From a virus: 64,000 nucleotides of DNA. Shown piece by piece: positions 18,675 to 19,654 of the stretch. The translations under genes and the position numbers were made by a program. Location of the stretch: IMG/VR virus record IMGVR_UViG_3300027976_000024. One strand, given 5' to 3'. The notes under the pieces were generated by a model that saw nothing but the letters and a program-made list of their open reading frames with translations, ran no database searches and was not told where the DNA came from. The stretch's first letter is position 1. Every line of letters begins with the position of its first letter.

Positions 18675-18919
18675 TGGGAAAAATCTTTTTTACATCTGAT
18701 ACAAAAAAATGATTTCAAATATTACTGGGTTGTCACAGACGACAGTTTCTGTAATAATAAAAAAATCAATAAGGCTACACTGTGTTTGTGATAGTCATGC
18801 AACGTGTGTTGCGATATGAAGGAATAGATTTAACAACTGAATCTTCCTGTTCTTTCTTAAAAACGTAATTAAGATTCAATAATAGAAGAGATATAATGAA
18901 CAAATCTCATAAAGGAGGC

Positions 18920-19654
18920 ATGAGTGTTGGCAAGGTATGGTTTACCGCCGACACTCATTAGCTTTTTGGGCACGGTAACATAATTAAATATTGCAATCGA
19001 CCATTTTTGACAAAAGCTGACGAAAAGGCTTTGGAAGAAAATGGAGGGTCTTGGCACAATGGCACATGGAAAGGCGATCGATCCAGTAATTGGAGGATTA
19101 CTTTGGATGCTGTTGAGATGATGAATGATGAATTCATCAATAATATCAATGCAATTGTTGGAGAGGATGACACTTTGTGGCATCTCGGTGATTTTGCATT
19201 TGCACAGAAAGACAGCTATGTCAGAAAATGCGAAAATTATCGACGTAGAATCAAATGCAAAAACATGAACATTATTTGGGGAAATCACGATGAGCCTCAT
19301 CTCATTAGCCATCTCTTTAATGAAAATCATTATATGCACACCATTCCTTTGCAACAACATAGGTTCAGGATAGTTTTGTGCCACTACGCAATGGCTGTAT
19401 GGGATGGAAGTCATCGTGCAAATTGGCAGATTTATGGGCACTCACACACATCAGCAGAACCTTGGATGAACCTCAATATGCCAGAACGAAAGAGCATGGA
19501 TGTTGGTGTAGATAATGCAAAATTGTTGCTTGGGTCTTATAGACCATTTGGCTTAGAAGATTTAGAAACAATTCTGTTACCTAGACAGGGCTTTTCAATG
19601 GATCATCACATCCCTAAGAACAGCACCGCTCCAAAAGAAGAAGATTTGATCTAA
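18920..19654 (+). CDS. calcineurin-like metallophosphoesterase interrupted by an in-frame TAG (readthrough, recoding or pseudogene)
   Basis: Perfect SD (AAAGGAGG) then ATG at 18920; MSVGKVWFTADTH is followed by TAG at 18959..18961, and the same frame continues LFGHGNIIKYCNRPF ... HLGDFAF ... GNHDEP ... GHSH, with all phosphoesterase motifs in order. Confidence 0.55.

Follow-up and report, generated by a model that had tools for sequence, protein, structure and literature searches.

Homing endonucleases that spread without an intron, such as those encoded by the seg and mob genes of phage T4, normally protect their carriers through base substitutions that keep the reading frame of the target. 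In T4 gene 60 a bypass element accompanies the homing endonuclease MobA, as Bonocora et al. are said to have described in 2011. The gap in gene 60 protects against MobA, and the endonuclease is often lost while the gap is retained; the take-off codon is matched by the landing codon and comes before a stop or 'hungry' codon (Manning and Atkins, bioRxiv 10.1101/2022.08.31.505936). Pairing of the exiting mRNA has been proposed to drive the forward movement (bioRxiv 10.1101/2024.12.09.627546). Programmed bypassing so far rests largely on gene 60 and one mitochondrial lineage. According to a review (PMC5009743), the 'byps' of Magnusiomyces capitatus mitochondria (Lang et al. 2014) measure 27-55 nucleotides (nt), and the synthetic 'stop-hops' of Weiss et al. 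1987 are hops of +5 and +6 in E. coli constructs. Natural short stop-hops were predicted from such constructs but had not been found, and no natural in-frame case was known in 2016 (PMC5009743); a full-text literature search joining bypassing, LAGLIDADG and phage gave no match. Here we describe a metallophosphoesterase gene on a 64,000-nt stretch of viral DNA (IMG/VR record IMGVR_UViG_3300027976_000024; the whole stretch is called the window) in which an in-frame TAG splits the catalytic DTH-FGH motif. Comparison with related loci suggests that this TAG is probably the first codon of the gap in a composite mobile cassette, decoded by a hairpin-driven short ribosomal hop. There is a better than even prospect that the cassette exemplifies a portable recoding module (an upstream 'spring-loaded' hairpin, a stop and a gap of 5-8 nt) that is carried by phage homing endonucleases and was previously undescribed.

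Stop-led inserts at one junction of a metallophosphoesterase gene

The phosphoesterase frame is opened by ATG at 18920, and the gene and the sequence just upstream are laid out as follows.

18712..18768, + strand: LAGLIDADG endonuclease remnant, 19 codons ISNITGLSQTTVSVIIKKS from the C-terminal helix-turn-helix part, found by targeted tblastn with the 303-residue open reading frame (ORF) of a related phage, L001
18911..18918, + strand: Shine-Dalgarno sequence AAAGGAGG
18920..18958, + strand: first coding segment, 13 codons MSVGKVWFTADTH, which doubles as an RNA hairpin
18956..18958, + strand: proposed take-off codon CAT, the His of the DTH metal-binding motif; last sense codon and last residue aligned ahead of the insert
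18959..18964, + strand: non-coding gap TAGCTT, made up of the stop TAG (18959-18961) and the candidate landing codon CTT (18962-18964)
18965..19654, + strand: resumed coding segment FGHGNIIKYCNRPF ... EEDLI, with the other metallophosphoesterase motifs, ending in TAA (19652-19654)

Past the TAG the same frame reads LFGHGNIIKYCNRPF..., followed by HLGDF, GNHDEP and GHSH. A first-pass annotation, made from the letters alone, had proposed this arrangement from the Shine-Dalgarno sequence through the TAG to the motifs reaching 19654, and sequence and translation bear it out. Its further argument, that the 13 N-terminal codons hold metal-binding motif I and that an enzyme can only be made if the TAG is bypassed or decoded, is likewise supported. 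With the gap removed, the protein contains DTH, HLGDF, GNHDEP, CHY and GHSH, in the motif order of calcineurin-like metallophosphoesterases (PF00149 / PF12850; DxH, GD, GNH(D/E), H, GHxH). It matches Pfam Metallophos with an E-value of 8e-5 (PF00149, 23.6 bits against a cut-off of 21.5), its closest solved structure is 1xm7, and a database search returned 581 homologues at E <= 1e-5. An intact relative, P0002, is 81% identical over the full length. The closest deposited phage, an uncultured phage of 595 kb, is 56% identical, and megablast of positions 18000-21000 against cultured and deposited phages gave no match.

Every full-length sequence in an alignment with 27 homologues has F directly after H (DTHFGH), and the window stop therefore sits in a 6-nt insert and not in a substituted codon. 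The junction reads cat|TAGCTT|ttt, with the insert at 18959-18964 and its placement ambiguous by +/-1 nt. The same six bases are found in L061, an independent contig (Ga0163144_10002010) whose enzyme is 95% identical at the amino-acid level, and exactly those six are missing from L062 (96% identity), which reads gacactcatttcggccat. The insert is real, is polymorphic among near-identical phages and is no sequencing error. What the first-pass annotation had offered as a 'small intervening element' among several options is the correct anatomy, and of the two outcomes that it had named for an alignment, a conserved residue or an insertion, the second holds.

The same data leave almost no weight for a sequencing or assembly error, an option that the annotation had also listed, or for genome-wide reassignment of TAG. 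The insert recurs in the independent L061 assembly, and another insert, TGACT, is present on contigs from six samples. TAG is recoded in some very large phages, and the nearest database phage, an uncultured one, has 595 kb. The standard code nevertheless fits the window, covering 82% of it; TAG ends 13 of the 60 long + strand ORFs, and all three stops lead inserts in the relatives. Code-15-like reassignment would show as in-frame TAG in many conserved genes together with a tRNA of CUA anticodon. Within the window, neither other TAG-interrupted genes nor such a tRNA, both of which the first-pass annotation had proposed to look for, were found: none of its 28 tRNAs carries CUA. In-frame stops between long open stretches at 13915, 20199 and 33209, considered as further candidates, proved to be ordinary gene boundaries.

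Reading the junction in about 260 fetched loci revealed that interruption at the T/H|F junction has happened many times. Stop-led interruptions occur as 15 distinct alleles with 10 insert sequences of 5-8 nt:

TAGCTT: window and L061; preceding codon His
TGACT: L001-L007 (six samples) and L142; preceding codon Thr
TAACT: L237; preceding codon Thr
TAGCT: L190; preceding codon Thr
TGAGCG: L011; preceding codon Thr
TGAAT: L068, L074 and L116; preceding codon His
TAAAGGAC: L076 and L077; preceding codon His
TAGTTAAC: L153; preceding codon His
TAGTTAT: L252; preceding codon His
TAGTGACC: L161 and L185; preceding codon Thr

Six more alleles (L084, L094, L095, L216, L221 and L040) have a single extra T at the H|F junction, giving CAY T TTC GGN, which is read as UUU CGG or UUU UGG. 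Their upstream hairpins are weaker (-7 to -12 kcal/mol), and three of the six have a LAGLIDADG gene or remnant upstream. By their sequence they resemble +1 frameshift sites, with tRNA-Phe moving from UUU to UUC. Away from the junction, a scan of about 115 loci for frame changes found only one lesion, in L127, which indicates that the interruptions are site-specific and not random decay. The L127 frame change lies at about 1127-1131 of a 1.7-kb contig, near residue 141-146, and may be a sequencing error. A protein-guided scan of IMG/VR returned distant relatives only, with no stop-led insert and the single-T L040 as the only interrupted allele; a narrow DNA pattern gave no match in IMG/VR, while a wider one succeeded. 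P0041 and P0099 owe their short lengths only to mis-called starts of intact genes. Gene callers also truncate the interrupted genes: P0001, P0012, P0016, P0102 and P0119 were called as 207-215 residues, and such cassettes are in this way annotated away in metagenomes.

The start of the gene also attracts other elements. A group II intron lies in the phosphoesterase gene about 11 codons downstream, after GNIIKYVR, in L076 and L077 (about 1505-4000) and in L079 (about 1578-3990), with an intron ORF of 602-609 residues of the reverse-transcriptase/maturase/HNH type. L076 and L077 have this intron in addition to their 8-nt stop-led gap, and this co-occurrence marks the first 25 codons of the gene as a hotspot for several kinds of mobile element.

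The hairpin ahead of the stop and the end of the gap

All ten insert types begin with an in-frame stop (TAG, TGA or TAA), and three of them, TGACT, TAACT and TAGCT, are identical save for that stop. The end of the insert is patterned as well. In nine of the ten types the final three bases share their middle base with the codon before the insert, and the third bases are wobble-equivalent. Three are full codon matches (ACC>ACU, ACU>ACU and ACC>ACC), pairing is possible with a G-U wobble for ACG>GCG and ACC>GCU, and gaps after His codons end in AAU, AAC, GAC or UAU. Grouped by origin, six of seven fit this landing rule against a 1-in-8 expectation, for which our own arithmetic gives a probability of about 2e-5. 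Removing the gap yields DTHFGH exactly in every allele, and the two segments jointly code for one conserved protein.

The strongest common feature lies upstream of the stop. The last 48 nt up to and including the take-off codon fold with -20.3 to -26.5 kcal/mol in 15 of 15 stop-led alleles, compared with a mean of -4.9 and a minimum of -15.3 kcal/mol for the same 48 nt in 108 distinct intact alleles; the two distributions do not overlap (Mann-Whitney p 2e-10). The end of the stem is 0-5 nt from the stop in every stop-led allele. In the window these 48 nt fold with -22.9 kcal/mol, and the 71 nt of 18905-18975 with -29.3 kcal/mol (z -5.4), a stability that none of 200 shuffles equalled. The window hairpin has a 5' arm at 18920-18931 and 18934-18937, a loop at 18938-18942 and a 3' arm at 18943-18958; its last paired base directly precedes the stop, and the AUG is paired with the take-off CAU.

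The 3' arm is the conserved coding sequence for F-T-A-D-T(-H), and the 5' arm is an N-terminal extension without counterpart in intact genes, its peptide (G-V-G-G-K-like) being the reverse-complement reading of the 3' arm. Across alleles the arms co-vary: in a covariation table anchored on the coding 3' arm, changes at third codon positions are matched by the partner base, and one column runs through C-G, U-A, G-C and A-U. RNAalifold on a MAFFT alignment of the hairpin region reported no structure, loop-length differences having put the 5' arms out of register. Fold-back repair was considered as the origin of the inverted repeat and rejected, as the inverted copy is located upstream of the N-terminal codons and not at the break.

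A GGAGG-like motif stands directly 5' of the hairpin in most related cassettes, and in L068, L074, L076 and L142 it is within the ORF, just ahead of the 5' arm. In the window an in-frame ATG at 18896 is a possible alternative start that would add MNKSHKGG at the N-terminus; with this start, AAAGGAGG becomes an internal GGAGG motif in the same position, directly 5' of the hairpin. A promoter-like site, a consensus match only, occupies 18869-18897 just upstream of the cassette (TTAAGA, 17 nt, TATAAT) in sequence common to L061.

Hairpin and stop together could also be imagined as a regulatory attenuator that ends transcription or blocks translation of the phosphoesterase, perhaps insulating the gene from transcripts of the endonuclease gene. 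The U-rich UAGCUUUUU after the window hairpin and the start codon buried in the stem would suit such a device, which we regard as very unlikely all the same. A terminator scan of 18500-19300 does not score the 18920-18958 hairpin, and the other alleles either lack the U-run or have it 4-12 nt away from the stem. A terminator moreover needs neither an in-frame stop nor a landing-like codon, and the downstream coding sequence is constrained.

Linkage to LAGLIDADG endonuclease genes and constraint on the enzyme

The interrupted alleles are tied to a homing endonuclease. L001-L007 carry a 303-codon LAGLIDADG ORF between the acetyltransferase and phosphoesterase genes; that of L001 matches PF14528 (LAGLIDADG_3; 25.4 against a cut-off of 22.5) and PF00961 (LAGLIDADG_1; 25.2 against 23.1) and has a C-terminal helix-turn-helix. 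Homologues of 34-51% identity occupy the same place and orientation in L084, L095, L153, L161/L185, L237 and L252, and decayed pieces are found in L068, L216 and the window. Relatives thus have a free-standing ORF with two LAGLIDADG motifs adjoining the target gene, of which the window keeps the 19-codon remnant, whose 57 nt encode a stretch 84% identical to residues 283-301 of the L001 ORF (E 4.5e-4). Of the interrupted alleles, counted by lineage, 10 of 17 are directly preceded by a LAGLIDADG ORF or its remains, against 0 of the 89 intact alleles for which sufficient upstream sequence is available (Fisher p 6e-10). In deposited phages, LAGLIDADG homologues were found in Lak phages only, and the copy inspected (Lak-B5) does not adjoin a phosphoesterase gene.

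Recombination boundaries point to the same link. Between L001 and L007, sequence identity extends from the endonuclease gene to the end of the insert and breaks off right there; the window and L061 likewise show no differences upstream and across the insert but diverge at once beyond it. Identity upstream followed by divergence at the insert is the expected trace of homing with the break at or near the insert. Right after the insert, in window 18965-19030 (codons 14-36), there are 11 purely synonymous differences from L061 and L062 in 23 codons, while L061 and L062 are mutually identical across this stretch; the cluster may be a co-conversion tract from another donor, or may result from selection on the endonuclease site.

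The interrupted gene itself is under purifying selection. When the gap is skipped, a complete enzyme with the expected motifs results from every interrupted allele whose sequence can be followed. The ratio of non-synonymous to synonymous substitution rates (dN/dS) is 0.08-0.17 for interrupted alleles wherever dS is unsaturated, and codon differences between the window and L061 comprise 30 synonymous and 10 non-synonymous changes. TGAAT is unchanged in three phages with enzymes that are 48-55% identical, and the flanking codons (V F F T A D T H | F G H) show nothing but synonymous differences; TGACT is likewise invariant between L001 and L142, again with flanks differing only synonymously. The marks of a pseudogene, relaxed constraint and secondary lesions, are absent.

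This bears on whether the cassette simply ruined a dispensable gene, in which case the insert would do nothing except destroy a cleavage site and the interrupted alleles would be young pseudogenes producing a 13-residue peptide. We consider such a selfish knock-out unlikely, and the recent nonsense mutation or pseudogene put forward by the first-pass annotation equally so, given an insert in place of a substitution, the absence of a second lesion and the low dN/dS. Homing-endonuclease genes are selfish, the phosphoesterase may be dispensable, and the window/L061 and L001/L007 pairs show recent recombination of the cassette into diverged genes, so that the low dN/dS could largely predate the insert. 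Left unexplained by a knock-out, however, are the stop-first inserts, with a stop that varies only among TGA, TAA and TAG; the strong, co-varying hairpin at the stop in all 15 alleles; the take-off-like insert ends; and the constancy of TGAAT and TGACT while their flanks drift only synonymously. Nor does any interrupted allele have a second lesion in the phosphoesterase frame, even where the endonuclease gene itself is decayed, as in the window, L068 and L216.

The proposed hop and its relation to known systems

We propose a cassette of four parts. The first would be a free-standing LAGLIDADG gene inserted just upstream of the phosphoesterase gene, of which the window retains the 57-nt remnant. 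The second is a putatively rebuilt 5' gene end, whose first codons are the reverse complement of those for F-T-A-D-T(-H) and form in the mRNA a hairpin of 12-17 base pairs reaching to the last sense codon. An in-frame stop right after that codon is the third part, and a few further bases, ending in a codon like the last sense codon, are the fourth. At the DNA level, the insert would split the conserved DTH|FGH sequence, which is probably the recognition or cleavage site of the endonuclease, leaving the carrier genome immune to its own enzyme while intact alleles would be cut and converted. Resistance of the carrier and cleavage of the intact allele are suggested, indirectly, by the strict co-occurrence and by the way in which recombination tracts end at the insert.

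At the RNA level, the ribosome would melt the hairpin and pause once the stop has entered the A site, its peptidyl-tRNA(His) being paired to CAU. At this pause the 3' arm would be inside the mRNA exit channel and the 5' arm already out; refolding of the hairpin would pull the mRNA forward, and the peptidyl-tRNA would detach. In the window it would slide 6 nt (5-8 nt in the relatives), re-pair on CUU and let decoding resume at UUU. The product would have the normal DTHFGH sequence, with the junction peptide VWFTADTHFGHGNIIK. For the single-T alleles a slip of tRNA-Phe by +1, from UUU onto UUC or UUU, would suffice. If true, this arrangement would allow an endonuclease to break its own target in an essential active-site motif without killing the gene. 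The comparisons firmly establish the anatomy and its recurrence, the co-varying hairpin, the stop-first rule, the tie to the endonuclease gene and the purifying selection, whereas cleavage specificity, protection and the hop are well-founded inferences.

Several points weigh against the cassette and its hop. The arm complementarity could in part reflect the origin of the cassette and not ongoing selection, and the dN/dS values can partly predate the insert, since homing can place a cassette into an already diverged gene. No endonuclease remnant is present in 7 of the 17 interrupted lineages. Because the window start at 18920 is part of the hairpin base, initiation there should be hampered, unless translation begins at the ATG at 18896. 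The window is also the exception to the landing rule: CAU>CUU matches at positions 1 and 3 and not at position 2, the poorest landing fit of the series. Finally, since the window gap is in frame, plain readthrough would likewise yield a complete protein, lengthened by two residues (DTH-X-L-FGH).

These last points favour readthrough of the TAG in the window allele by a suppressor or near-cognate tRNA, within a cassette otherwise as described, as does a phage repertoire of 28 tRNA genes that includes unusual ones. We nonetheless hold readthrough to be improbable. The array offers no CUA anticodon, TAG is a normal stop here, and the two extra residues would separate metal ligands that adjoin each other in all homologues. 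Related cassettes sharing this hairpin are also led by TGA and TAA and have gaps of 5, 7 and 8 nt, which readthrough cannot repair. The 6-nt hop from CAU to CUU is the first choice for the window and TAG readthrough the fallback. The first-pass annotation had suggested 'suppressor-tRNA readthrough or recoding'; recoding is the best-supported way of decoding the gene, while a suppressor tRNA from the array is not borne out by any of its 28 members. Termination followed by re-initiation, which would give a split protein, was rejected: there is no in-frame start between the gap and the conserved FGHGNIIKYCNRPF, and this segment is under selection.

The genes around the cassette are arranged similarly in related phages, with the order amidoligase, sigma-70-like factor, GNAT acetyltransferase and NAD-dependent DNA ligase conserved (window 12310-13917, 20202-22595). 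Two of these genes have the following coordinates:

18198-18674: GNAT acetyltransferase
20520-22595: NAD-dependent DNA ligase

A 90-residue ORF at 20202-20474 has no Pfam match, and related loci have an eIF-1a-like ORF just upstream of the ligase gene. Further away, the 420-residue ORF at 33634-34896 has an N-terminal GIY-YIG-like domain (PF22945, 26.3 bits, just below the cut-off of 27) and may be a second homing-endonuclease gene in the window. Three adjacent genes at 31614-33598, encoding a JAB-like peptidase (weak Pfam match), a ThiF/E1-like enzyme (E 1e-18) and a 119-residue ORF, resemble a ubiquitin-like conjugation set. Among the tRNAs, tRNA-Cys(GCA) at 50065-50149 is 85 nt long with a long variable arm, unusual for a Cys tRNA, and ARAGORN reports a tRNA-like gene at 53200-53274 whose anticodon loop has 6 nt and whose two-base anticodon, 'at', is ambiguous (Ile or Tyr).

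In +1 frameshifting of the prfB type, a stop or slow A-site codon makes the P-site tRNA re-pair. The single-T alleles (CAY UUU CGG) look to be of this type, with a slip from UUU to UUC; the window, in contrast, would need a non-overlapping move of 6 nt, and its stimulator would be an upstream hairpin and not a Shine-Dalgarno sequence 3 nt upstream. Intronless homing by the T4 seg and mob genes is alike in that the endonuclease gene is beside its target, flanking markers are co-converted and the carrier is protected by differences in the target site, and unlike in that the frame-breaking or stop-bearing insert described here demands recoding. The mitochondrial byps, as the review describes them, are likewise many short mobile inserts in coding sequence that seem to be corrected in translation, with matched take-off and landing codons; they differ in being mitochondrial, in having an unused codon and not a stop in the A site and in having no linked endonuclease gene.

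In the synthetic stop-hops, the peptidyl-tRNA leaves the codon before a stop and re-pairs on a matching codon a few nt downstream. Those are engineered and inefficient, whereas the events proposed here would be natural and recurrent, with a hairpin that is presumably selected. If true, they would be the first family of such short hops found in nature, spread widely over very different phages, and other genes may carry the module. At least 15 natural alleles that vary in gap length, stop, landing codon and hairpin offer a ready mutational series on whether mRNA that refolds behind the ribosome can drive it to slide forward.

The cassette would be a short natural counterpart of the gene 60 bypass with MobA. 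In both, a short non-coding insert sits in a conserved, metal-binding region and moves together with a free-standing endonuclease gene next door; a stop comes right after the take-off codon, and a candidate landing codon that resembles it closes the gap; structure in the mRNA on the 5' side of the take-off site is implicated in forward movement; and the gap often outlasts the endonuclease gene. The differences are equally clear. The gene 60 gap is about 50 nt long, with an internal stem-loop and a Shine-Dalgarno sequence, compared with 5-8 nt with neither of these here, and the gene 60 5' stem-loop is not conserved, whereas a strong upstream hairpin is the dominant conserved signal in our series. 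MobA is an HNH endonuclease, and its host gene, for the large subunit of topoisomerase II, is split; here a LAGLIDADG endonuclease is paired with an unsplit metallophosphoesterase gene, and no sequence homology between the window cassette and the gene 60/MobA element is evident. By analogy, the window cassette would work like gene 60 but is no member of that element. If true, it would be a second independent case of a homing endonuclease gaining immunity by means of a recoding signal, which suggests a general strategy.

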